Source: a virus
Taxonomy: Duplodnaviria > Caudoviricetes
Length of the DNA stretch: 64,000 nucleotides
Direction: 5' to 3' (one strand)
Virus record (IMG/VR): IMGVR_UViG_3300026035_000001
Span: 1,634 to 65,633 of that record
The notes under the pieces were generated by a model. It was not told where the DNA came from, did no database searches, and saw nothing but the letters and a program-made list of their open reading frames with translations. Position numbers and translations under genes: made by a program. Shown piece by piece: positions 835 to 25,420 of the stretch. The first letter of the stretch is position 1; each line of letters starts with the position of its first letter.

Positions 835-924
835 GGGCCTTAGCACAGGTGTGCGGCTCGGTTTTATAAACCGGGGCACCGGACGGGTGTAGACGGCTCG
901 GCTCGATACCGAGGAGGCCTACCA
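835..924 (+). tRNA. irregular tRNA with UAU anticodon (nominal Ile) and long variable arm
   Basis: GGGCCTT/GAGGCCT, A73, CCA 922-924; D arm GCAC-AGGT-GTGC; loop TT TAT AA; V stem GCACC/GGTGT; T loop CTCGATA. Confidence 0.8.
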
Positions 925-1271
925 TGAAAGTCATCGCTAAGTATTTGGCGATGGAGCAGCCGCCGCTCCTGCAGCTGTGGGTACATGACGCGCCGCACCG
1001 GCGCATGCACGTGAGGGTGATCCAGGAGTACCGGCGCGCGATCTTGGCGGCGTGCCAGAAGGCTGGGATCATCACGCCGATCGCCGATCCGATCGAGCTC
1101 GATGTGCTGTTCGTCAATCCGTCGTCGCCCGATCTCGGCAATCTTTATCTGGCGCTGGAGCAAGCACTGGATGCGAAGGCACTGCGGCCGATGCCGGGCG
1201 TGGTGGTCGACGATAGCCTGATCGAGGCCGTGAAGATGGCCAAGTATTGGAATCAGGCGAAGAAAAAATAG
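924..1271 (+). CDS. RusA-like protein with degenerate active site
   Basis: PIELDVLF...PDLGNLYLALEQAL...VVVDDSLI matches the RusA pattern (DLDNxxKxxxDAL...DDxxV); SD GAGGAGG 6 nt upstream. Confidence 0.75.
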   Translation: MKVIAKYLAMEQPPLLQLWVHDAPHRRMHVRVIQEYRRAILAACQKAGIITPIADPIELDVLFVNPSSPDLGNLYLALEQALDAKALRPMPGVVVDDSLIEAVKMAKYWNQAKKK

Positions 1272-1348
1272 GATCTCTTAGCTCAACTGGATCGAGCGCC
1301 GGCCTCCGAAGCCGGGAGATCGGCGTTCGAGTCGCCGGGAGATCGCCA
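1272..1348 (+). tRNA. tRNA-Arg(CCG)
   Basis: GATCTCT/GGAGATC, G73, CCA; loop CT CCG AA; A20 present. Confidence 0.95.
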
Positions 1349-1351
1349 AAT

Positions 1352-1439
1352 GGATGGTCCAGGTGCAATGGTGCGCCAGCGGTCTTGAAAACCGTGGCCC
1401 GGGCAACCGGTGGGGGTTCGATTCCTCGGCCATCCGCCA
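1352..1439 (+). tRNA. tRNA-Ser(TGA)
   Basis: GGATGGT/GCCATCC, G73, CCA; loop CT TGA AA; long V arm. Confidence 0.92.
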
Positions 1440-1440
1440 A

Positions 1441-1589
1441 GAAGGGCTGATGCCTCACGACTGCGCCGGATTCGTAGTCATACGTTTGGGTTTGGTATCA
1501 CGATTCAAAGCCTTCCCGGAGGGCCCCGATCAATTCTGTGCAGGCCGGAGGTACGCCGCGCACGCGAGAGAGTTCAAAGCCTCGCACCA
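1441..1589 (+). ncRNA. two irregular structured RNAs, the second ending in ACCA
   Basis: 1441-1515: stems GAAGG/CCTTC, TGATGCC/GGTATCA, GACTGC/GTAGTC. 1538-1589: hairpin GCGAG/CTCGC followed by A-CCA. Both contain TTCAAAGCCT. Confidence 0.4.
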
Positions 1590-1591
1590 AT

Positions 1592-1666
1592 TGCAGGTAA
1601 AGGTCGGGTGACCCGTTCGGTCTCATAAGCCGGAACAGCAGGATTCGAGTTCCTGGCCTGCAACCA
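1592..1666 (+). tRNA. tRNA(CAT), elongator Met or Ile2 type
   Basis: TGCAGGT/GCCTGCA, A73, CCA; loop CT CAT AA; lacks the initiator GGG/CCC; 4-nt D loop. Confidence 0.85.
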
Positions 1667-1671
1667 ATTTC

Positions 1672-1762
1672 GGGTGGCGCAAGTAAGGATCGGCGGTCCG
1701 ATCGCCGCGCTGTAAACGCGGTCCCTTTGGGCAGGATGTTCAACTCAGTCCGTCACCCACCA
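1672..1762 (+). tRNA. tRNA-Tyr(GTA), irregular
   Basis: GGGTGGC/GTCACCC, A73, CCA; loop CT GTA AA; 9-nt linker, D arm GATCGG-CGGT-CCGATC; bulged T stem. Confidence 0.85.
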
Positions 1763-1763
1763 T

Positions 1764-1837
1764 GCGGCCATAGCTCAATGGCAGAGTTCGACCTTGCCAA
1801 GGTCGAGACGTCGGATCGTAACCGACTGGCCGCTCCA
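1764..1837 (+). tRNA. tRNA-Gly(GCC)
   Basis: GCGGCCA/TGGCCGC, U73, CCA; loop TT GCC AA; T loop ATCGTAA. Confidence 0.93.
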
Positions 1838-1841
1838 ATTC

Positions 1842-2096
1842 AGTCCGCGCCCGGCGGTGGATGGCCGGCGGCGGCTCGCGCGATCGATACTGCGGGAAGT
1901 ACAACCGCGAAGGGTCGACGGGAATGCGCCGCGGCGCCAATCGAAACGGGATGCCATCTGCCCTCTGGGACGGCTCCTCGCGCGATGCAATACGGTAAGG
2001 GTTTGGCGTGCCCTCCTACTTCAACGAAGACCCGCAACCGCGGCAAATTAATGAAGAGGTGACCGTGAAGGCGGTCGAATAAAACGCCATCTATTC
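1842..2096 (+). ncRNA. ~255-nt putative structured RNA between tRNA-Gly and tRNA-Phe
   Basis: No convincing ORF; hairpins CCGGC/GCCGG, GCGG/CCGC, AGGG/CCCT, GACCG/CGGTC, GAATA/TATTC; long-range GGGTC(1912)/GACCC(2029); CTCGCGCGAT occurs twice. Confidence 0.45.
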
Positions 2097-2172
2097 GCCC
2101 TGTTAGCAAATCTGGTGATTGCACGCGGCTGAAGACCGCAGGAGGCCTGTTCGAATCAGGCGCAGGGCACCA
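2097..2172 (+). tRNA. tRNA-Phe(GAA)
   Basis: GCCCTGT/GCAGGGC, A73, CCA; loop CT GAA GA. Confidence 0.93.
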
Positions 2173-2176
2173 ATTC

Positions 2177-2248
2177 GGGGAAAGCGTTGGGACGCAGTGA
2201 CCCTTTGCACGGCTCACGTTCGGAGTTCAATTCTCCGTTTCTCCACCA
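2177..2248 (+). tRNA. tRNA-Ala(TGC), compact core
   Basis: GGGGAAA/TTTCTCC with G3.U70, A73, CCA; D arm GCGT-TGGG-ACGC directly after the acceptor; loop TT TGC AC; 3-nt V loop. Confidence 0.85.
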
Positions 2249-2256
2249 TCTTCTAT

Positions 2257-2333
2257 TCCGGTCGGGCCATCTTGGTGATGGCGGGCGGCTGTTAACCGCC
2301 ATGCGGCAGGTTCGAAACCTGCGACCGGAGCCA
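2257..2333 (+). tRNA. tRNA-Asn(GTT)
   Basis: TCCGGTC/GACCGGA, G73, CCA; loop CT GTT AA. Confidence 0.93.
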
Positions 2334-2334
2334 T

Positions 2335-2409
2335 GCTGCCGTCGTCTACTGGCTAGGATGCTGGGTTCTCAACCCGGTGAAGCGGGATCGATACCCGCCG
2401 GCAGTGCCA
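2335..2409 (+). tRNA. tRNA-Glu(CTC)
   Basis: GCTGCCG/CGGCAGT, G73, CCA; loop TT CTC AA; T loop ATCGATA. Confidence 0.92.
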
Positions 2410-2414
2410 TTTAC

Positions 2415-2490
2415 GGTCCCGTAGCACAATGGATAATGCGCCAGACTACGAATCTGGGAGGTCGGGGTTCGAATCCTCGCGGGATCGCCA
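2415..2490 (+). tRNA. tRNA-Arg(ACG)
   Basis: GGTCCCG/CGGGATC, G73, CCA; loop CT ACG AA; A20 present. Confidence 0.95.
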
Positions 2491-2491
2491 T

Positions 2492-2565
2492 CAGGATGAA
2501 AGATTGCGGAAGTCGGGCGGCCTCGGATGCTGCCAGTGGAGGTTCGACTCCTCCCATCCTGACCA
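2492..2565 (+). tRNA. tRNA-Pro(CGG) with A37
   Basis: CAGGATG/CATCCTG (C1-G72), A73, CCA; loop CT CGG AT; 6-bp anticodon stem, 3-nt V loop. Confidence 0.85.
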
Positions 2566-2569
2566 ACAT

Positions 2570-2639
2570 TGCGGTCCTCCAGGGGATAAGCCCGGCTCTG
2601 ACCCGGGCGACGTGGGTTCGAGTCCTACGGCCGCAGCCA
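2570..2639 (+). tRNA. tRNA-Gln(CTG), reduced D arm (70 nt)
   Basis: TGCGGTC/GGCCGCA (U1-A72), G73, CCA; loop CT CTG AC; D region only 13 nt. Confidence 0.85.
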
Positions 2640-2646
2640 ATCCTAT

Positions 2647-2721
2647 GACCGGATGCCAGAGCGGCGATGGGCGGGCCTGCAAAGCCCGGCAAGGGGCGTT
2701 CGACTCGCCCTCCGGTCTCCA
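2647..2721 (+). tRNA. tRNA-Cys(GCA)
   Basis: GACCGGA/TCCGGTC, U73, CCA; loop CT GCA AA. Confidence 0.93.
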
Positions 2722-2723
2722 AT

Positions 2724-2800
2724 GCCCCGGTAGCTCAGTGGTAGAGCGCGCGTCTTCTAAACGCGATCTGGCGGGTGTTCGAATCACCCTCGGGGCTCCA
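2724..2800 (+). tRNA. tRNA(TCT), nominal Arg, with U73 and no A20
   Basis: GCCCCGG/TCGGGGC, U73, CCA; loop CT TCT AA; D loop AGTGGTA; 7-nt V region. Confidence 0.85.
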
Positions 2801-2804
2801 ATTT

Positions 2805-2880
2805 GGCCACGTACCGGTCGGGCCTCCTAAGCTCGATACCGTAACTGGAGATGGGCGTTCGACTCGCCCCGTGGCCACCA
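2805..2880 (+). tRNA. D-armless tRNA(CCT), nominal Arg
   Basis: GGCCACG/CGTGGCC, A73, CCA; only TACCGGT between acceptor and anticodon stems; loop CT CCT AA; 17-nt variable region; canonical T arm. Confidence 0.75.
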
Positions 2881-2881
2881 T

Positions 2882-2969
2882 GGAAGGCTAACCCGGCGGG
2901 GCCGGGCGTCGATTGCTAACCGATCGGCGGCGACTATGCCGTGAGGATCGTGCCCTCAGCCTTCCGCCA
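2882..2969 (+). tRNA. tRNA-Ser(GCT)
   Basis: GGAAGGC/GCCTTCC, G73, CCA; loop TT GCT AA; long V arm; T loop ATCGTGC. Confidence 0.9.
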
Positions 2970-2974
2970 TTCAT

Positions 2975-3049
2975 GCGACCTTGGGTCATTGGTTGATCGC
3001 CGGCCTTCCAAGCCGTGCCAAGGGAGTTCGATTCTCCCAGGTCGCTCCA
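2975..3049 (+). tRNA. tRNA-Gly(TCC)
   Basis: GCGACCT/AGGTCGC, U73, CCA; loop CT TCC AA. Confidence 0.95.
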
Positions 3050-3050
3050 T

Positions 3051-3125
3051 GCTGCGTTCGTCTACTGGCTAGGATAGCGGTCCTTCAAACCGCGGGAAGG
3101 GGATCGAAACCCCTACGCAGCCCCA
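3051..3125 (+). tRNA. tRNA-Glu(TTC) with C33 and C73
   Basis: GCTGCGT/ACGCAGC, C73, CCA; loop CC TTC AA; D arm identical to that of tRNA-Glu(CTC). Confidence 0.85.
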
Positions 3126-3130
3126 AATTT

Positions 3131-3204
3131 GGGCGGTTCGTTTAACGGTAGGACGGCAGTTTTTGAGGCTGCCTATGTGGGTTCGAATCCTACACCGCCT
3201 GCCA
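3131..3204 (+). tRNA. tRNA-Gln(TTG)
   Basis: GGGCGGT/ACCGCCT, G73, CCA; loop TT TTG AG. Confidence 0.92.
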
Positions 3205-3205
3205 A

Positions 3206-3276
3206 CGCTCTCCCTCCGGCGAGGAAACGGCTTTCATACGGCTGTCAGGCGCGATCGACACGCGCGTGAGCGACCA
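3206..3276 (+). tRNA. tRNA(CAT), compact core
   Basis: CGCTCTC/GTGAGCG, A73, CCA; D arm CCTC-CGGC-GAGG with no connector; 6-bp anticodon stem, loop TT CAT AC; V loop CAG; T loop ATCGACA. Confidence 0.75.
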
Positions 3277-3281
3277 ATCAT

Positions 3282-3358
3282 GCTGGAGATGCTCGATGGC
3301 AACGGGCGGCCGGACTGTGAATCCGGAGTACTCGGTTCGATTCCGAGCTCCAGTACCA
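3282..3358 (+). tRNA. tRNA-His(GTG), alphaproteobacterial type (no G-1)
   Basis: GCTGGAG/CTCCAGT (G1.U72), A73, T at -1, CCA; loop CT GTG AA. Confidence 0.92.
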
Positions 3359-3363
3359 AAATT

Positions 3364-3435
3364 ATCGGTGGGCTCCGGGAGCCGGCAGGTCTCCAAAACT
3401 TCGCCGCGAGGGTTCGACACCTTCCACCGGTGCCA
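3364..3435 (+). tRNA. tRNA-Trp(CCA), compact core
   Basis: ATCGGTG/CACCGGT, G73, CCA; D arm GGCTC-CGG-GAGCC with no connector; loop CT CCA AA; extended, bulged anticodon stem. Confidence 0.8.
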
Positions 3436-3443
3436 ATATCAAG

Positions 3444-3476
3444 CCCGGTCCCTTTCCCAGGGGCCGGCCTTTTTTA
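3444..3476 (+). terminator. intrinsic terminator of tRNA array
   Basis: Stem CCGGTCCCT/AGGGGCCGG followed by CCTTTTTT. Confidence 0.85.
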
Positions 3477-3484
3477 TTGTGATG

Positions 3485-3679
3485 TCAATGCAAATCGCGG
3501 TCTTCCTTGGAGTACGGCCCCTTGGCCGATGGCGTCCTTTCGATGCGACAGCCGGACCCACACATGCGCCCGTTCGGCGTCTGGTCGAAGCGGCCCCCGC
3601 ATGTCTCACAAGTCTTATTGTGACGCGCCAACCCCATGGCGCGGCGAACCTTTGTTGGCGTCACGTTGTTGGCCATCAC
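3485..3679 (-). CDS. small Cys-rich hypothetical protein
   Basis: 64 aa, CxxC...CxxxC; TGATG coupling to the upstream gene. Confidence 0.55.
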   Translation of the reverse strand: MMANNVTPTKVRRAMGLARHNKTCETCGGRFDQTPNGRMCGSGCRIERTPSAKGPYSKEDRDLH

Positions 3680-3885
3680 AGTTCCTTTAACTGCTGATTA
3701 GTGACGCTCTGTCGCGTCACGTAGGCTTGCGCATAGGCAATTGCTGACCCGAGATTTCGCAACACCTCTTGGATGTCGCCGAACTCCGGTTCCGGATTGG
3801 TGGCGATCTCGTCAAAGAATTTTTCATCCTTCAGCCAGCGCCGATAAATCGCTTTGACTTTGCGGGCTTTCTGCGCTGGCGTCAT
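3676..3885 (-). CDS. hypothetical protein
   Basis: 69-aa ORF in a tightly packed operon. Confidence 0.65.
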   Translation of the reverse strand: MTPAQKARKVKAIYRRWLKDEKFFDEIATNPEPEFGDIQEVLRNLGSAIAYAQAYVTRQSVTNQQLKEL

Positions 3886-3895
3886 CGCTAACTAC

Positions 3896-4618
3896 CTACT
3901 TCGGAAATTGCCTGATCATCAGATCGTCCGGGATTGCAGTCTTTCCGGTCATCTGCTTCATGAAGAACGGAACCTCCCGCTCGGCGCATTCGTCGCGGAG
4001 CTCCCGCGCCCAGGCCGGCTCCATCATGCGGGCGCCGGGCCCGCTCTCTCCGCCGCAGATCAGCCAATCCGGGAGATGAGATTTTGGAAACTTGCGCGTG
4101 GTGAGCGGACCGAGCGCTGGTTCATAGGAGATAAACCGCACGATGGCGGGGAGCTCCAGCATGATCTCCCACCGGCGGTCGAAAGCGTCCTGGTCTTCGG
4201 TCGTGGTGCCGAGCCAGATATTGCCCGGGAACCAGAACGGATGCATCATCTTTTCGATGTTCTCCGGGCGCTTGGTCAAGAGCAGCCAATCAAGCTCTGG
4301 CGTATCCATGATCATATGGAACAGGTCGGCCCGCGCGCCGGCAGGGGCCTTGTTGTCGAACACGTCGGCAAGGCTGGCACAGAAGACGCGCGGGCGCCGG
4401 CCAGAGGCTTTGGCAGCCTTGGCCCATCGGTAGGGCTGGCGCCAGTTTGACGCACTGGTGCGCACGCGGGCGCCGTGAGGACCCCATTCGACGCGATGGT
4501 ATCGCTTGTCCATCAGGGTCTCCGCATAGCAAAGGTCGCAGCCGGCGGAGACCTTCTGGCAGCCGATCCAGGGGTTGAACGTATGATCGCACCATGCGAT
4601 TGCAGTTTTCTCGCCCAT
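3896..4618 (-). CDS. DUF5131 (phage Gp37/Gp68) family protein
   Basis: IAWCDHTFNPWIGCQKVSAGCDLCYAE, VFCASLADVFD, LLLTKRP, RFISYEPALG, WLICGGESG, FFMKQM; start at MGEKT by TGATG coupling. Confidence 0.9.
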   Translation of the reverse strand: MGEKTAIAWCDHTFNPWIGCQKVSAGCDLCYAETLMDKRYHRVEWGPHGARVRTSASNWRQPYRWAKAAKASGRRPRVFCASLADVFDNKAPAGARADLFHMIMDTPELDWLLLTKRPENIEKMMHPFWFPGNIWLGTTTEDQDAFDRRWEIMLELPAIVRFISYEPALGPLTTRKFPKSHLPDWLICGGESGPGARMMEPAWARELRDECAEREVPFFMKQMTGKTAIPDDLMIRQFPK

Positions 4619-5031
4619 CAGATCGGTTCCCATTTGATCAGGTCGCCATTGAAGTAACCGACTCCATGCTCCTGGCGCCAGAAATCGTACATATCGCCGC
4701 AGTCGTTGAAACCGTCGGCTTGGGCGAAATCGATTCGCTCAAGATCGGACAGCCAGTGCTTGCCGACGCGGATATCGAGGCCGTAAGGGGTTGGCGAGAC
4801 ATTGATCCGGATCGGGACCACCTCGATGCAGCGGGCCTCGCCGATCTTCTGACAGTGCTTTGTCCTCTGGGCATAGTAAAGCTGCAGGATTTCCCCCGGC
4901 CGAGCGTGGCGCCGCCGCGGCAGGCGGATTGTCTGCCGCTTTGGTGCGCAATCGAATGACAGGCTGACCGACGACAGGCCAACCCGGATCGGCTGCACAA
5001 ACCGCTGTTTGAAGCTATAGGCGACCATCAT
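4618..5031 (-). CDS. ASCH/PUA-like domain protein
   Basis: YSFKQRFVQPI...KRQTIR...RPGEILQLY...FAQADGF pattern typical of ASCH-like phage proteins. Confidence 0.7.
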   Translation of the reverse strand: MMVAYSFKQRFVQPIRVGLSSVSLSFDCAPKRQTIRLPRRRHARPGEILQLYYAQRTKHCQKIGEARCIEVVPIRINVSPTPYGLDIRVGKHWLSDLERIDFAQADGFNDCGDMYDFWRQEHGVGYFNGDLIKWEPI

Positions 5032-5240
5032 GCTCTCCGGTGATAGACGCCGATGCCCTTGTTCGGCGTGCCGGTGCGGGTGATCACGTCATCGGCGAGC
5101 ATGGTGCTGACCGCACGCAATACCTTCTGCGTCGAGAGGCCGGTTGTGGCGGAGATGTCTTTCAGGCTGGCGCCGGCCGGCGGGATTGCGCTCAGGACCC
5201 CATTAAGTATTGCGACGTCTTCGCTTCCACGGTTTTCCAT
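5028..5240 (-). CDS. winged-HTH protein
   Basis: ASLKDISATTGLSTQKVLRAVSTML...ITRTG; start refined to MENRG. Confidence 0.65.
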   Translation of the reverse strand: MENRGSEDVAILNGVLSAIPPAGASLKDISATTGLSTQKVLRAVSTMLADDVITRTGTPNKGIGVYHRRA

Positions 5241-23258: not shown

Positions 23259-24362
23259 ATGAAGCGCGCCACCGCGGTAATCGGAGCAGTGTTCGGAGAC
23301 GAAGGTAAGGGCCTTTTCACGGACTATTTTTGTCGGCTAGCTGGCTCCGAACCGCTGGTGGTGCGCTTCAATGGTGGGGCCCAAGCAGGACATACCGTCG
23401 TCACTCCGACCGGAATCAGGCATGTGTTCCACCATTTCGGATCGGGAACGCTTGCCGGCGCGCGCACCTATTTGTCGCGGTTCTTCCTGGTCAACCCGAT
23501 CCTGTGGATGAAGGAACATCAGGAGCTCCAGGCTCTGAGCCAGCAGCACAATCTCGGCCTTCGGCTGCGCCTGTTCGTCGATCGCGAGGCACCGCTGACC
23601 ACCGTTATCGACATGATCGAAGGGCAGGACCGCGAGCGCCAGAAGCGCCATGGCAGCTGCGGCGCCGGCATCCATGCGACAATGGTGCGCCAAAAATACG
23701 CCCAGTACCGCCTATTTGCTGGCGACCTGGATAATCCAATGTTTCTCAGCGACCGGGTTTACAAAATACGCAAACAGGTCGATTCGACGATCAGCGATGA
23801 GGTGATCGAGCGATTTCTCGAAGACTGCCGGCTGATGCGCTCGCATATCAGTTTTTGCGATAGTCGCCTGATGGCAGCGCACCCGGGCGATATCGTGTTC
23901 GAGGGAGCCCAGGGCCTACTTCTGGATCAGGACAACATGACGTTTTTCCCGCATGTGACCCACAGCCACACGGGCTTGCGCAACGTCTCGGAGCTCTCCC
24001 GCGAATGCAATATCGATCGAATGAACGTGGTCTATGTGCTACGCTCCTACATCACCCGGCATGGCGCCGGGCTGCTTCCATCGGAAGCGTCTGAACTGTC
24101 TTATCCAGATGACACAAATGTCGAAAACGAATGGCAGGGGAAATTACGATTTGCCCCGCTCGACGCGCGGAACAGAGAAATGGTTGGCAATGCGATCATC
24201 CGCGACTTTTCGGGAAACGAGCGCGCTGGCATGAAATTGTCAGTCGCAATGACGCATTTAGACCAATGCGAGATACCCAATTTTGAAAAATTACGAACGA
24301 CATTCCGCTCTCACGGGCCCTCCGCCGGCAATATCGAGGGAAAAGCGGAATGGCCGCATTAA
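23259..24362 (+). CDS. adenylosuccinate synthetase (PurA)-like enzyme, divergent
   Basis: FGDEGKG, RFNGGAQAGHT, GSG, GSCGAGI, FEGAQGLLLD, FPHVTHS, YITRHGAG; aspartate-binding TTGR loop replaced. Confidence 0.9.
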   Translation: MKRATAVIGAVFGDEGKGLFTDYFCRLAGSEPLVVRFNGGAQAGHTVVTPTGIRHVFHHFGSGTLAGARTYLSRFFLVNPILWMKEHQELQALSQQHNLGLRLRLFVDREAPLTTVIDMIEGQDRERQKRHGSCGAGIHATMVRQKYAQYRLFAGDLDNPMFLSDRVYKIRKQVDSTISDEVIERFLEDCRLMRSHISFCDSRLMAAHPGDIVFEGAQGLLLDQDNMTFFPHVTHSHTGLRNVSELSRECNIDRMNVVYVLRSYITRHGAGLLPSEASELSYPDDTNVENEWQGKLRFAPLDARNREMVGNAIIRDFSGNERAGMKLSVAMTHLDQCEIPNFEKLRTTFRSHGPSAGNIEGKAEWPH

Positions 24363-24384: not shown

Positions 24385-24558
24385 ATGAGCGACCATAAAG
24401 GCGACAAATCAAAGCAGCCGCAAGGCTGTCAGCCGGAAAAGTACGCGGGCAACCCCTGCCCAAACATGAAGGAGACCGGAGGCGGGATGGATGGCGAGCA
24501 ATATCGCTGTGAAGTCTGCGGCGAGGCTTTCTATCTCGACTACGACGAGATGCGTTAG
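24385..24558 (+). CDS. 57-aa zinc-ribbon protein
   Basis: MSDHK...PCPNM...YRCEVCGEAFYLDYDEMR; GAGGG SD. Confidence 0.6.
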   Translation: MSDHKGDKSKQPQGCQPEKYAGNPCPNMKETGGGMDGEQYRCEVCGEAFYLDYDEMR

Positions 24559-24577
24559 ACGCCACTTAAGGAAACCG

Positions 24578-25420
24578 ATGAACCCCTACCTGATCCAGGG
24601 CCCGGCCTTGATCTCGTTCAGCGGTGGCCGCACCTCGGCCTATATGCTGCACGAAATCCTGCGCGCTCACGACGGCAAATTGCCGGAAGATGTGCGGGTC
24701 TGCTTTGCCAACACTGGGAAAGAGCGGGAGGAGACGCTTCGCTTTGTCCATGAGTGTTCGGTGCGCTGGGATGTTCACGTCAACTGGATCGAATATCGCG
24801 ACAATACCGTAGGCTTCGAACTGGTCGGCTATAATTCGGCAAGCCGGAACGGAGAGCCGTTCCAGGCGATGATCGACAAAAAGAAGCGCCTACCGAACTG
24901 GAAAGAGCGGTGGTGTACTGATCGGCTCAAGGTGCAGCCTATGACGGATTTTGCTGCCTCGCTAGGTCTCTTGCCCGGCGCCTATACCGAAGTGATCGGG
25001 CTGCGCCATGACGAAGGCATGCGAATCCTCAAGGGCATGGAGAACGCAGAGAAGCGCGGCAGGAAGTGTGCGTGGCCGCTGGCGAAGGCCAAGGCGACCA
25101 AGAACGGCCACGTCATGCCGTTCTGGCGCGAACAACCATTCGATCTTGGCCTTGAGCCATGGGAAGGCAACTGCGATGTGTGCTTTTTGAAAGGACGCGG
25201 TATCAAAAAGCGCATCATCGCCGATGATCCTAGTCGGGCGATTTGGTGGTCCAACAACGAGAGCAAGCACAAGGGTAAGCAAGAACGGGGATGGTTCGAC
25301 CGGCGCGACAGTATCGCCGGCTTAGTTGCCGAGGTGCGCAAAGCACCAACCCTTTTCGAGCCGATAGATGATGCGGACTATGACGTGGAATGCGGGCTGA
25401 CATGCTCAGCCGATCTTTAA
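24578..25420 (+). CDS. PAPS-reductase/PP-loop family protein
   Basis: ISFSGGRTSAYM, FANTGKE, RWCTDRLK, IGLRHDE, GNCDVCFLK. Confidence 0.88.
   Translation: MNPYLIQGPALISFSGGRTSAYMLHEILRAHDGKLPEDVRVCFANTGKEREETLRFVHECSVRWDVHVNWIEYRDNTVGFELVGYNSASRNGEPFQAMIDKKKRLPNWKERWCTDRLKVQPMTDFAASLGLLPGAYTEVIGLRHDEGMRILKGMENAEKRGRKCAWPLAKAKATKNGHVMPFWREQPFDLGLEPWEGNCDVCFLKGRGIKKRIIADDPSRAIWWSNNESKHKGKQERGWFDRRDSIAGLVAEVRKAPTLFEPIDDADYDVECGLTCSADL

Follow-up and report, generated by a model that had tools for sequence, protein, structure and literature searches.

Sense-codon tRNAs on a compact, almost fully paired core in the tRNA array of a phage

Canonical class I transfer RNAs (tRNAs) have a 2-nt connector (U8, N9) between acceptor and D stem, a D loop of 7-11 nt, the nucleotide N26, a 5-bp anticodon stem and a variable loop of 4-5 nt. 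Some working tRNAs are built differently: the pyrrolysine tRNA (tRNA-Pyl) of Candidatus Methanomethylophilus alvus (M. alvus), a member of the delta-N PylRS class, has no connector between acceptor and D stem, a 4-nt D loop and an anticodon stem with one unpaired base on its 3' side, and mitochondrial tRNA-Ser(UCN) is a less extreme case (PMC7609411). For tRNA clusters of alpha-proteobacterial phages only (8/4) forms are reported, and lengthened anticodon stems are not mentioned (Mukai et al., 2017, PMC5389517). Here we analyzed a stretch of 64,000 nucleotides, called the window in the following, which comprises bases 1634-65633 of the 65,633-bp IMG/VR virus record IMGVR_UViG_3300026035_000001 (Duplodnaviria; Caudoviricetes). 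Three, arguably four, tRNAs of its tRNA array are built on a compact, almost fully paired core, namely tRNA-Ala(UGC), a tRNA with a CAU anticodon, tRNA-Trp(CCA) and, as the weaker member, tRNA-Gln(CUG). Judged from sequence analysis, we put the probability at roughly 0.7 that the genes are true tRNA genes with a compact core, whose products would most likely act as ordinary elongators charged by the alanyl-, tryptophanyl- and methionyl-tRNA synthetases (AlaRS, TrpRS and MetRS) of the host.

The structures were derived from reading the sequence, from our own descriptor scanner, which is anchored on the T loop, and from minimum-free-energy (MFE) folds calculated with RNAfold (Table 1). Ala, CAU and Trp share a common layout, in which a 7-bp acceptor stem is followed without any connector by a D stem of 4-5 bp with a GG-containing loop of 3-4 nt, a linker of 0-1 nt, a 7-bp anticodon stem, a variable loop of 2-3 nt and a normal T arm. 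The anticodon stem is not flawless: Ala and CAU each contain one mismatch, and Trp has a single bulged C. Up to position 73 the genes measure 68-69 nt (Ala 2177-2245, CAU 3206-3273, Trp 3364-3432), and both the MFE and the centroid structures of RNAfold correspond to the compact cloverleaf in all three. The canonical features that are kept include the 7-bp acceptor, the 5-bp T stem, the 7-nt T loop (which in CAU carries A54) and the 7-nt anticodon loop with U33 and R37. This agrees with the original prediction, a note made from the bare sequence, which had placed the D stem of these three genes directly behind the acceptor, had given 3-4 nt for the D loop and 2-3 nt for the variable loop and had seen an anticodon stem of 6-7 bp; we count seven positions in each gene, which in CAU means six pairs plus A.C. 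The identity elements that it listed are likewise present. Bacterial tRNA-Trp is recognized by the CCA anticodon, G73 and A1-U72, all of which are found in the Trp gene, and the Ala gene carries G3.U70 and A73 in addition to its TGC anticodon. Of the two genes which the prediction had included only in part, Gln(CUG) can stay as a weak compact member that matches the descriptor with one D-stem mismatch and reaches 24.7 bits with the Rfam tRNA model and 30.0 bits with the covariance model R1 introduced below. Pro(CGG) has to be taken out and is better read as a short, essentially canonical tRNA; in an alternative RNAfold structure the connector measures 3 nt, the anticodon stem 6 bp and the variable loop 3 nt.

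Table 1. Coordinates (window numbering) of the compact tRNA genes and of associated features.
Feature	Position	Strand	Details	Source
Compact tRNA-Ala(UGC)	2177..2248	+		sequence, descriptor, RNAfold
Ala acceptor stem	2177-2183/2238-2244		GGGGAAA/TTTCTCC; G3.U70 (G2179.T2242)	
Ala D stem	2184-2187/2192-2195		GCGT/ACGC, from position 8; loop 2188-2191 TGGG; linker A2196	
Ala anticodon stem	2197-2203/2211-2217		GTGACCC/GGCTCAC; C2201.C2213 mismatch; anticodon TGC 2206-2208	
Ala variable loop and 3' part	2218-2220		GTT; T arm 2221-2237; A73 at 2245; CCA 2246-2248	
Compact CAU tRNA	3206..3276	+		sequence, descriptor, RNAfold
CAU acceptor stem	3206-3212/3266-3272		CGCTCTC/GTGAGCG; U3211.U3267 mismatch	
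CAU D stem	3213-3216/3221-3224		CCTC/GAGG; loop 3217-3220 CGGC; linker A3225	
CAU anticodon stem	3226-3232/3240-3246		AACGGCT/GGCTGTC; 6 pairs including 2 G.U, terminal A.C; anticodon 3235-3237	
CAU variable loop and 3' part	3247-3248		AG; T arm 3249-3265, loop ATCGACA; A73 at 3273; CCA 3274-3276	
Compact tRNA-Trp(CCA)	3364..3435	+		sequence, descriptor, RNAfold
Trp acceptor stem	3364-3370/3425-3431		ATCGGTG/CACCGGT; A3364-T3431 is A1-U72	
Trp D stem	3371-3375/3379-3383		5 bp, GGCTC/GAGCC; loop 3376-3378 CGG; no linker	
Trp anticodon stem	3384-3390/3398-3405		4 bp, bulged C3402, 3 bp; anticodon 3393-3395	
Trp variable loop and 3' part	3406-3407		GC; T arm 3408-3424; G73 at 3432; CCA 3433-3435	
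tRNA-Gln(CUG), weaker compact member	2570..2639	+	70 nt including CCA; connector 0-1 nt, D stem 3-4 bp, AGG loop, anticodon stem 6-7 bp, variable loop 2-3 nt	
tRNA-Pro(CGG)	2492..2565	+	Rfam tRNA 40.2 bits; canonical descriptor fits with one D-stem mismatch	
Intrinsic-terminator-like hairpin and T run	3445..3477	+	9-bp stem with 7 G-C pairs, then CCTTTTTTAT	

Compared with the described systems, the phage tRNAs fall within the compact-core definition of tRNA-Pyl (connector of 0-1 nt, D loop of 4-5 nt, anticodon stem of at least 6 bp, variable loop of at most 3 nt). M. alvus tRNA-Pyl likewise has a 0-nt connector, a D loop of 4 nt and a variable loop that is very short, and its bulged, lengthened anticodon stem is the design of the Trp gene here, but that stem has 6 bp, whereas the phage tRNAs have 7 bp and a variable loop of 2-3 nt. 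Mammalian mitochondrial tRNA-Ser(UCN) and the tRNA-Pyl of Methanosarcina and Desulfitobacterium ('type I', PMC7609411) make the same trade-off with a 3-nt variable loop, and mitochondrial Ser(UCN) keeps G18, G19 and the T-psi-C loop, like the phage genes. The phage design goes one step further than these type I cores with their 1-nt connector and 6-bp anticodon stem (0 nt, 7 bp, 2-3 nt in the variable loop) and, unlike them, serves several isotypes. Furthermore, the anticodons are the sense anticodons UGC, CAU and CCA in place of the CUA of tRNA-Pyl, and the genes are bacterial or phage genes for standard amino acids with no PylRS among the open reading frames (ORFs) scanned, again unlike tRNA-Pyl. 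The resemblance is architectural and convergent, without sequence homology. The analogy to tRNA-Pyl and mitochondrial tRNA-Ser(UCN) drawn in the original prediction is thus in line with the published layout of M. alvus tRNA-Pyl (PMC7609411), and what remains of its Pyl-like core family is a fold under selection, as indicated by covariation across phages, and a likeness in architecture instead of homology.

The (8/4) tRNA-Ser and tRNA-His and the allo-tRNAs (PMC5389517) are also non-canonical cloverleaves in the same sort of phage cluster, but these alter the split between acceptor and T stem (8/4 or 9/3) and have long variable arms, whereas the tRNAs described here keep the 7/5 split and a variable loop of 2-3 nt and are rebuilt on the D/anticodon side, which sets them apart from the (8/4) and (9/3) types. 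Phage tRNAs that evade defence systems (van den Berg 2023, PMC10264068; P2-OLD, PMC12445682) are isoacceptors which differ from the host tRNA in sequence or architecture, but these are canonical cloverleaves with point changes, unlike the compact core. Full-text literature searches revealed no paper describing such compact tRNAs in phages or bacteria, and the word 'phage' is absent from a 2020 review of non-canonical tRNAs (PMC7609411). Seemingly, the Pyl- or mitochondrial-type core is known, and its use for sense-codon tRNAs of phages and mobile arrays is new; in bacterial hosts, Ala, Trp, Met and further sense codons appear to be served by such a core, which covariation shows to be conserved in many phages and in some bacterial tRNA arrays.

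It could be argued that the compact fold is an artefact of folding by hand and that the genes form a canonical or an (8/4), allo-tRNA-like cloverleaf. Neither Ala nor CAU is matched by the Rfam tRNA model RF00005 at E<=10, and for Trp there is no more than a score of 17.8 bits with the tRNA-Sec model, so that these three, together with Gln-CUG, stay below the curated gathering threshold of RF00005 (29 bits). ARAGORN with default settings calls Ala and Trp, and CAU as tRNA-Met only at -ps80, and it forces a 1-nt connector on Ala by a shift of the acceptor register. In Trp, a pair between G3371 and C3424 would be an alternative that leads to an 8/4 form, and 8/4-like tRNAs seem to be present in the same array (Ser 1351-1436, 48.2 bits on the Rfam tRNA-Sec model; Mukai 2017). 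However, the canonical descriptor fits none of Ala, CAU and Trp (observed: connector 0 nt, D loop 3-4 nt, anticodon stem 7 bp, variable loop 2-3 nt), and with 68-69 nt to position 73 the genes cannot accommodate a connector of 2 nt together with a D loop of 7 nt and a variable loop of 4 nt. The shifted register of Ala comes at the cost of a C.C at 1:72 and of G3.U70, a pair conserved in the family, whereas the zero-connector register has seven acceptor pairs including G3.U70. An eighth pair is impossible in Ala, where G would face G, and in the Trp gene of phage Immanuel3, where A would face C, and is thus not conserved among Trp homologues, whereas the 8-20 pair of the Trp D stem covaries (G-C, A-U, U-A). 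RNAfold gives the compact fold independently. The canonical and 8/4 refolds of Ala, CAU and Trp were rejected because of descriptor failure, register costs and the missing eighth pair, and we regard an explanation of this kind as extremely improbable.

Chance matches to the compact descriptor are rare. In 2.86 Mb of fetched loci we obtained 92 matches on the real sequence and none in the reversed decoy, searched on both strands (5.7 Mb), and when both strands of the 65.6-kb genome were searched, the one extra match was an alternative fold of the canonical Glu-CUC. To judge pairing without bias, we rely on an Ala pattern for IMG/VR that fixes the 5' GGGG, the UUUGCA loop, the T-arm GUUC, the 3' CUCCA and a shortened 5' spacing and demands no pairing in the D or anticodon stems. 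This pattern matches 91 IMG/VR stretches. Among the 63 distinct sequences, pair 5 of the anticodon stem, counted from the loop, is formed in 94% and pair 6 in 92%, the latter with five pair types, whereas pair 6 is formed in only 22% of 1052 canonical tRNAs from the same loci. Pair 4 is often mismatched (48% paired), and about half of the distinct sequences parse as strictly compact, with many D stems and NGG(G) loops.

A custom covariance-model search of viral sequences, proposed along with the original prediction, was carried out with model R1, built from 13 compact tRNAs with the window Ala and CAU among the seeds, and yielded 113 matches at E<1e-7 in 942 kb. In the resulting alignment, which is fitted to the model so that its paired percentage leans towards structure, 93.0% of the cells are paired, compared with 57.0% in shuffles and 38-51% with slid partners; the spacing-only Ala pattern (63 sequences versus 1052 controls), and not R1, is the unbiased pairing test. 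The covariation score of R1 is 0.836 versus 0.186, double-sided changes occur in 4/4 D-stem and 7/7 anticodon-stem pairs, and G3.U70 is found in 69 of 89 distinct rows. The window Ala scores 80.7 bits, a circular value for a seed of the model. Three MAFFT alignments (A1, A2, A5) were left out of the pair counts, as they shifted the 5' end or the bulge instead of placing a gap in the D loop. When all viral loci are taken together, there are 59 distinct compact tRNAs, of which 50 show precisely 12 layers in D stem, linker and anticodon stem and 55 keep GG in the D loop. The compact tRNAs of the window follow the same design rules (7/5 branch, connector of 0-1 nt, 12 layers, GG loop of 3-5 nt, variable loop of 2-3 nt, location in an array). 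The covariation across many phages shows, at the level of sequence comparison, that the compact fold is under selection.

Additional evidence comes from arrays in the same gene order as in the window, which we found in two IMG/VR phages, G018 (37 kb fragment) and G019 (86.6 kb). Both keep the compact Ala (orthologues L195/L383 and L225/L382), with no change in the acceptor or in the inner part of the anticodon stem with its C.C mismatch, while the pairs of the D stem (GCGT/ACGC, GTGT/ACAC and GTGG/CCAC over the three arrays) and the three outer pairs of the anticodon stem (GTG/CAC, GTC/GAC and GGC/GCC) covary with the window. A BLAST search of GenBank phages with Ala matched only the 3' half, the matches being canonical Ala tRNAs (DyoEdafos, FelixO1, PR1). 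For Trp, BLAST led to Streptomyces phage Immanuel3 and its relatives, whose records list the gene as tRNA-Trp, and the Immanuel3 layout (L039) is that of the window: 7 / 0 / 5-CGG-5 / 0 / 4 bp + bulge + 3 bp / 2 nt. The IMG/VR sequence L093 represents the unbulged form (TCGCA-CGG-TGCGA, then TGACGGT/ACCGTCA), and in six further Trp variants the same 3'-strand bulge after the fourth pair is seen several times. The D stems differ between the window (GGCTC/GAGCC), Immanuel3 (AGCTA/TAGCT) and L093 (TCGCA/TGCGA), all with the CGG loop, and the outer anticodon-stem pairs covary (GGC/GCC, CGC/GCG and TGA/TCA, in the same order). The tRNA-Trp of T5, for which a suppressor test is on record in GenBank, is canonical and has the AUU.../...UUU acceptor in common with Immanuel3. 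As a side observation, this acceptor is found in T5-like (L256), Streptomyces, Aeromonas and Vibrio phages (L039, L041, L042) and contains U2.U71 and U3.U70 mismatches under A1-U72 and G73.

The design is not confined to these isotypes. The loci retrieved with the Ala pattern also contain compact-only tRNAs for Cys, Arg, Trp, Thr, Ile and Lys, 29 beside 669 canonical ones, and an earlier idea of a trio, with only Ala, Trp and CAU compact, was given up once compact Cys, Arg, Thr, Ile and Lys tRNAs had come to light. A variant of the compact Ala that differs from the window sequence (L239) is shared at 100% identity by phiCbK, Karma, Magneto, Rogue, Swift and others, is present in 24 phiCbK-like records at >=99% identity and is unannotated in most of them. 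This variant also occurs in CcrColossus, CcrPW, Brevundimonas jumbo phages and one Mesorhizobium phage. In bacterial assemblies, the Ala pattern detects compact Ala genes that belong to tRNA arrays, for instance in Bradyrhizobium sp. C9 and NAS80.1, Kribbella, Streptomyces and Micromonospora. Such long chromosomal tRNA arrays are a class described before (PMC8421152). Since several tRNAs are common to the Bradyrhizobium C9 array and the window (74-79% identity), there are hints of a Bradyrhizobium-like host and of exchange between phages and chromosomal long arrays. For the portal-protein relatives (37 loci), 17 records were searched, of which only 2 contain tRNA genes at all, and the array is missing from every one of the 17; because portal-related phages do without it, the array is, by its distribution, a horizontally mobile module. 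A side observation is that of solitary tRNA-Ala(UGC)-like genes of 66-67 nt in metagenome-assembled genomes of Actinomycetes and Solirubrobacterales (L262, L263, L270, L286, L295, L297, L314 and others), which are not in arrays and have a canonical 3' half and just ~13 nt between acceptor and anticodon stem, that is, a truncated D arm.

The tRNA array of the window lies on one strand at genome positions 865 to 5068. ARAGORN with default settings predicts 30 tRNA genes, and relaxed settings add Leu-CAG, Lys-UUU, Tyr-GUA, the CAU gene at 3206 and one odd tRNA-like gene on the + strand, so that the array totals ~36 tRNA genes and covers all 20 amino acids; just 19 tRNA genes are above the threshold of the Rfam tRNA model. 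Ala and Trp are represented by one gene each and in the compact form only. The compact genes are spaced 1-8 nt from their neighbours and, like other genes of the array, encode CCA. Because they include the sole Ala and Trp genes of a 20-amino-acid set, carry the identity elements and encode CCA, we infer that the compact tRNAs would serve in decoding; we likewise infer their aminoacylation, their use by ribosomes and their three-dimensional shape.

Alternatively, the genes might be decaying pseudo-tRNAs or tRNA-like RNAs without a part in translation, such as decoys for tRNA-cleaving nucleases (tRNases), punctuation for operon processing or targets of recombination or attachment. The rejection by the Rfam tRNA model, the annotation of the related Trp of Bradyrhizobium phage BDU-MI-1 as pseudo-tRNA, the several weak pairs of CAU, the many unannotated copies in phiCbK-like phages and the canonical orthologues in sister arrays would fit such an origin. 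But decay would not keep four helices by double-sided compensatory changes, nor would it keep G3.U70, A73, G73, 7-nt anticodon loops with U33 and R37, the GG and the 12 layers; moreover, the compact genes are the sole Ala and Trp of an otherwise complete set, and the compact Ala is identical over at least 24 phiCbK-like phages. We therefore consider decay or a non-translational role unlikely.

Several points nevertheless weigh against genuine elongator tRNAs on a compact core, besides the bias of the R1 alignment named above. In G018 and G019 the Trp, CAU and Gln-CUG tRNAs are canonical in length and fold (75-76 nt for Gln-CUG), which means that compaction is not required for function in this type of array; the canonical Trp of G019 has a T arm identical to that of the window Trp (GAGGG-TTCGACA-CCTTC). 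CAU is the weakest case, with U.U in the acceptor, two G.U and an A.C in the anticodon stem, A54 and no homologue, and its high R1 score is circular, as it is a seed of the model. The z-scores of the RNAfold structures do not stand out (-0.5 to -1.2), which is common for tRNAs. Finally, the argument of 12 layers is geometric reasoning and not a model. Since Ala is compact in all three arrays and Trp, CAU and Gln are compact only here, orthologous slots can switch between a canonical and a compact core, and among the three phages the one studied here has gone furthest.

Searches of IMG/VR and GenBank revealed no close homologue of the CAU gene; BLAST gave only chance matches in coding sequence, and the lone IMG/VR pattern match turned out to be a coincidence in coding sequence with no tRNA there. 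It is located 1 nt after Gln-UUG and 5 nt before His, encodes CCA, fits the descriptor exactly and fills the conserved Gln(UUG)-[CAU]-His-Trp slot of the syntenic arrays. Initiator tRNAs are marked by C1xA72 and three G-C pairs, lysidine-dependent tRNA-Ile2 by C4-G69/C5-G68 and tRNA-Met by A73 and G2-C71/C3-G70. In the CAU gene C1-G72 is paired and the anticodon stem does not have three G-C pairs, both of which argue against an initiator. The gene is probably a tRNA-Met, as favoured by G2-C71, C3-G70 and A73; of the Ile2 determinants only half are found, with U-A at position 4:69. A second CAU tRNA of the array (1592-1666) allows two folds, a canonical one with a 3-bp D stem and a 9-nt loop and an alternative with a 3-nt connector, a 4-bp D stem, a 4-nt loop and a 7-bp anticodon stem, and the matching slot in G018 holds a classical initiator (CGCGGGG...CCCCGCA).

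How might a tRNA with such a reduced core keep its shape? U8/N9, the large D loop, N26 and the variable loop of 4-5 nt are lost or shortened, and we assume that Watson-Crick pairs replace them. A D stem of 4-5 bp, a linker of 0-1 nt and an anticodon stem of 7 bp would give 12 stacked layers, which by structural reasoning would match the canonical 5 + 1 + 4 plus the tertiary layers 8-14 and 15-48. With the junction shifted two layers towards the elbow, the connectors could shrink to 0 and 2-3 nt, and the GG of the small D loop might still dock on the T loop, so that the L shape and the distance between anticodon and CCA would be kept. Since the identity elements lie outside the rebuilt core, charging need not change, and the Met elements (CAU, A73, G2-C71, C3-G70) would likewise be outside of it. 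Compaction has either arisen in individual slots of the array or been swapped into them.

It is also conceivable that the compact core serves a phage-side partner (a synthetase or a modification or repair enzyme) which recognizes the shape of the tRNA, like delta-N PylRS, and that the tRNAs form a private orthogonal channel independent of host enzymes. The shape of the tRNA is thought to matter for the PylRS pair of M. alvus (PMC7609411), and many genes of the window are of unknown function. A non-exhaustive scan of ~35 larger ORFs, however, revealed no synthetase, CCA-adding, tRNA-modification or tRNA-ligase family, the design is shared by unrelated phages and by bacterial arrays that differ in their genes, and the standard host identity elements are retained. 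A dedicated partner seems very unlikely to us.

If the compact tRNAs are elongators charged by host enzymes, the advantage of the core could be independence from core modifications and from slow tertiary folding, or escape from tRNases that act on the anticodon stem or the junction, both of which are speculative. As a precedent, altered stem pairing is known to make phage Thr tRNAs resistant to P2-OLD, a nuclease that cuts the anticodon stem (PMC12445682). A bolder version, which we put forward tentatively and rather doubt, is a widespread design of phages and mobile arrays that would be accepted for standard amino acids by bacterial synthetases, EF-Tu and ribosomes. By doing away with single-stranded connectors, tertiary core and canonical anticodon-stem geometry, it would have been selected for folding without host core modifications (s4U8, D, m7G46, acp3U47) and for escape from host defence nucleases that act on the anticodon stem and junction. 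Should such a selected counter-defence design exist, these would be Pyl-like, shape-divergent sense-codon tRNAs and natural scaffolds for synthetic biology. Whether core rebuilding is an escape route from tRNA-targeting defences is a testable question, and phiCbK with Caulobacter and Streptomyces phage Immanuel3 are tractable systems for asking how much of the tRNA core translation needs. For annotation, the tRNA repertoires of phages and the analyses of codon compensation are biased, since Rfam misses compact genes and phiCbK-like records mostly leave the Ala gene unannotated.

Ten nucleotides past Trp, the last gene of the array, begins the terminator-like hairpin listed in Table 1, which is likely the 3' end of the tRNA operon. 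Some other members of the array are unusual as well. Two of them are consistent with the (8/4) tRNA-Ser and tRNA-His reported from clusters of alpha-proteobacterial phages (Mukai et al., 2017, PMC5389517), namely the tRNA-Ser(UGA) at 1351-1436, which with 48.2 bits exceeds the Rfam tRNA-Sec cut-off of 47, and the tRNA-His at 3282-3358, in which the anticodon is at position 36. A tRNA-Tyr(GUA)-like gene at ~1673-1765 with a long variable arm, a 6-bp D stem and a 4-nt loop is missed by Rfam and by ARAGORN at default settings and has an unannotated 81% match in the Sinorhizobium jumbo phage Phosso. Between Arg(UCU) and Ser(GCU), a tRNA-like gene (2805-2880) combines good acceptor and T arms with an odd middle; ARAGORN labels it '???' with a 4-base anticodon, and it has a 76.7% match in the tRNA array of Bradyrhizobium sp. 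C9 (L285). The 90-nt 'Ile(UAU)' gene at 835-924 shows a long extra arm and a short D arm, and its slot is common to all three syntenic arrays (L382:2590-2683; L383, - strand, 2532-2621), in one of which the anticodon is uncertain to ARAGORN. Two small ORFs on the + strand (24-332 and 924-1271; 102 and 115 aa) are located within the array and match no Pfam or PHROG family. Homing endonucleases are frequent in arrays of this sort.

The virus record itself has direct terminal repeats and is estimated to be complete, and the window encodes portal, large terminase and capsid proteins, a DnaB-like helicase, ERF and YqaJ recombination proteins and a PurZ-like enzyme. The latter, at 23259-24362 (+), is a 367-aa homologue of adenylosuccinate synthetase (PF00709, 4.7e-36) with phrog_1211, '2-aminooxy adenylosuccinate synthetase', as best PHROG (1.3e-52), and is followed by a PAPS-reductase-like ORF at 24491-25420. 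It is possible that the DNA of this phage carries 2-aminoadenine (Z) in place of adenine.

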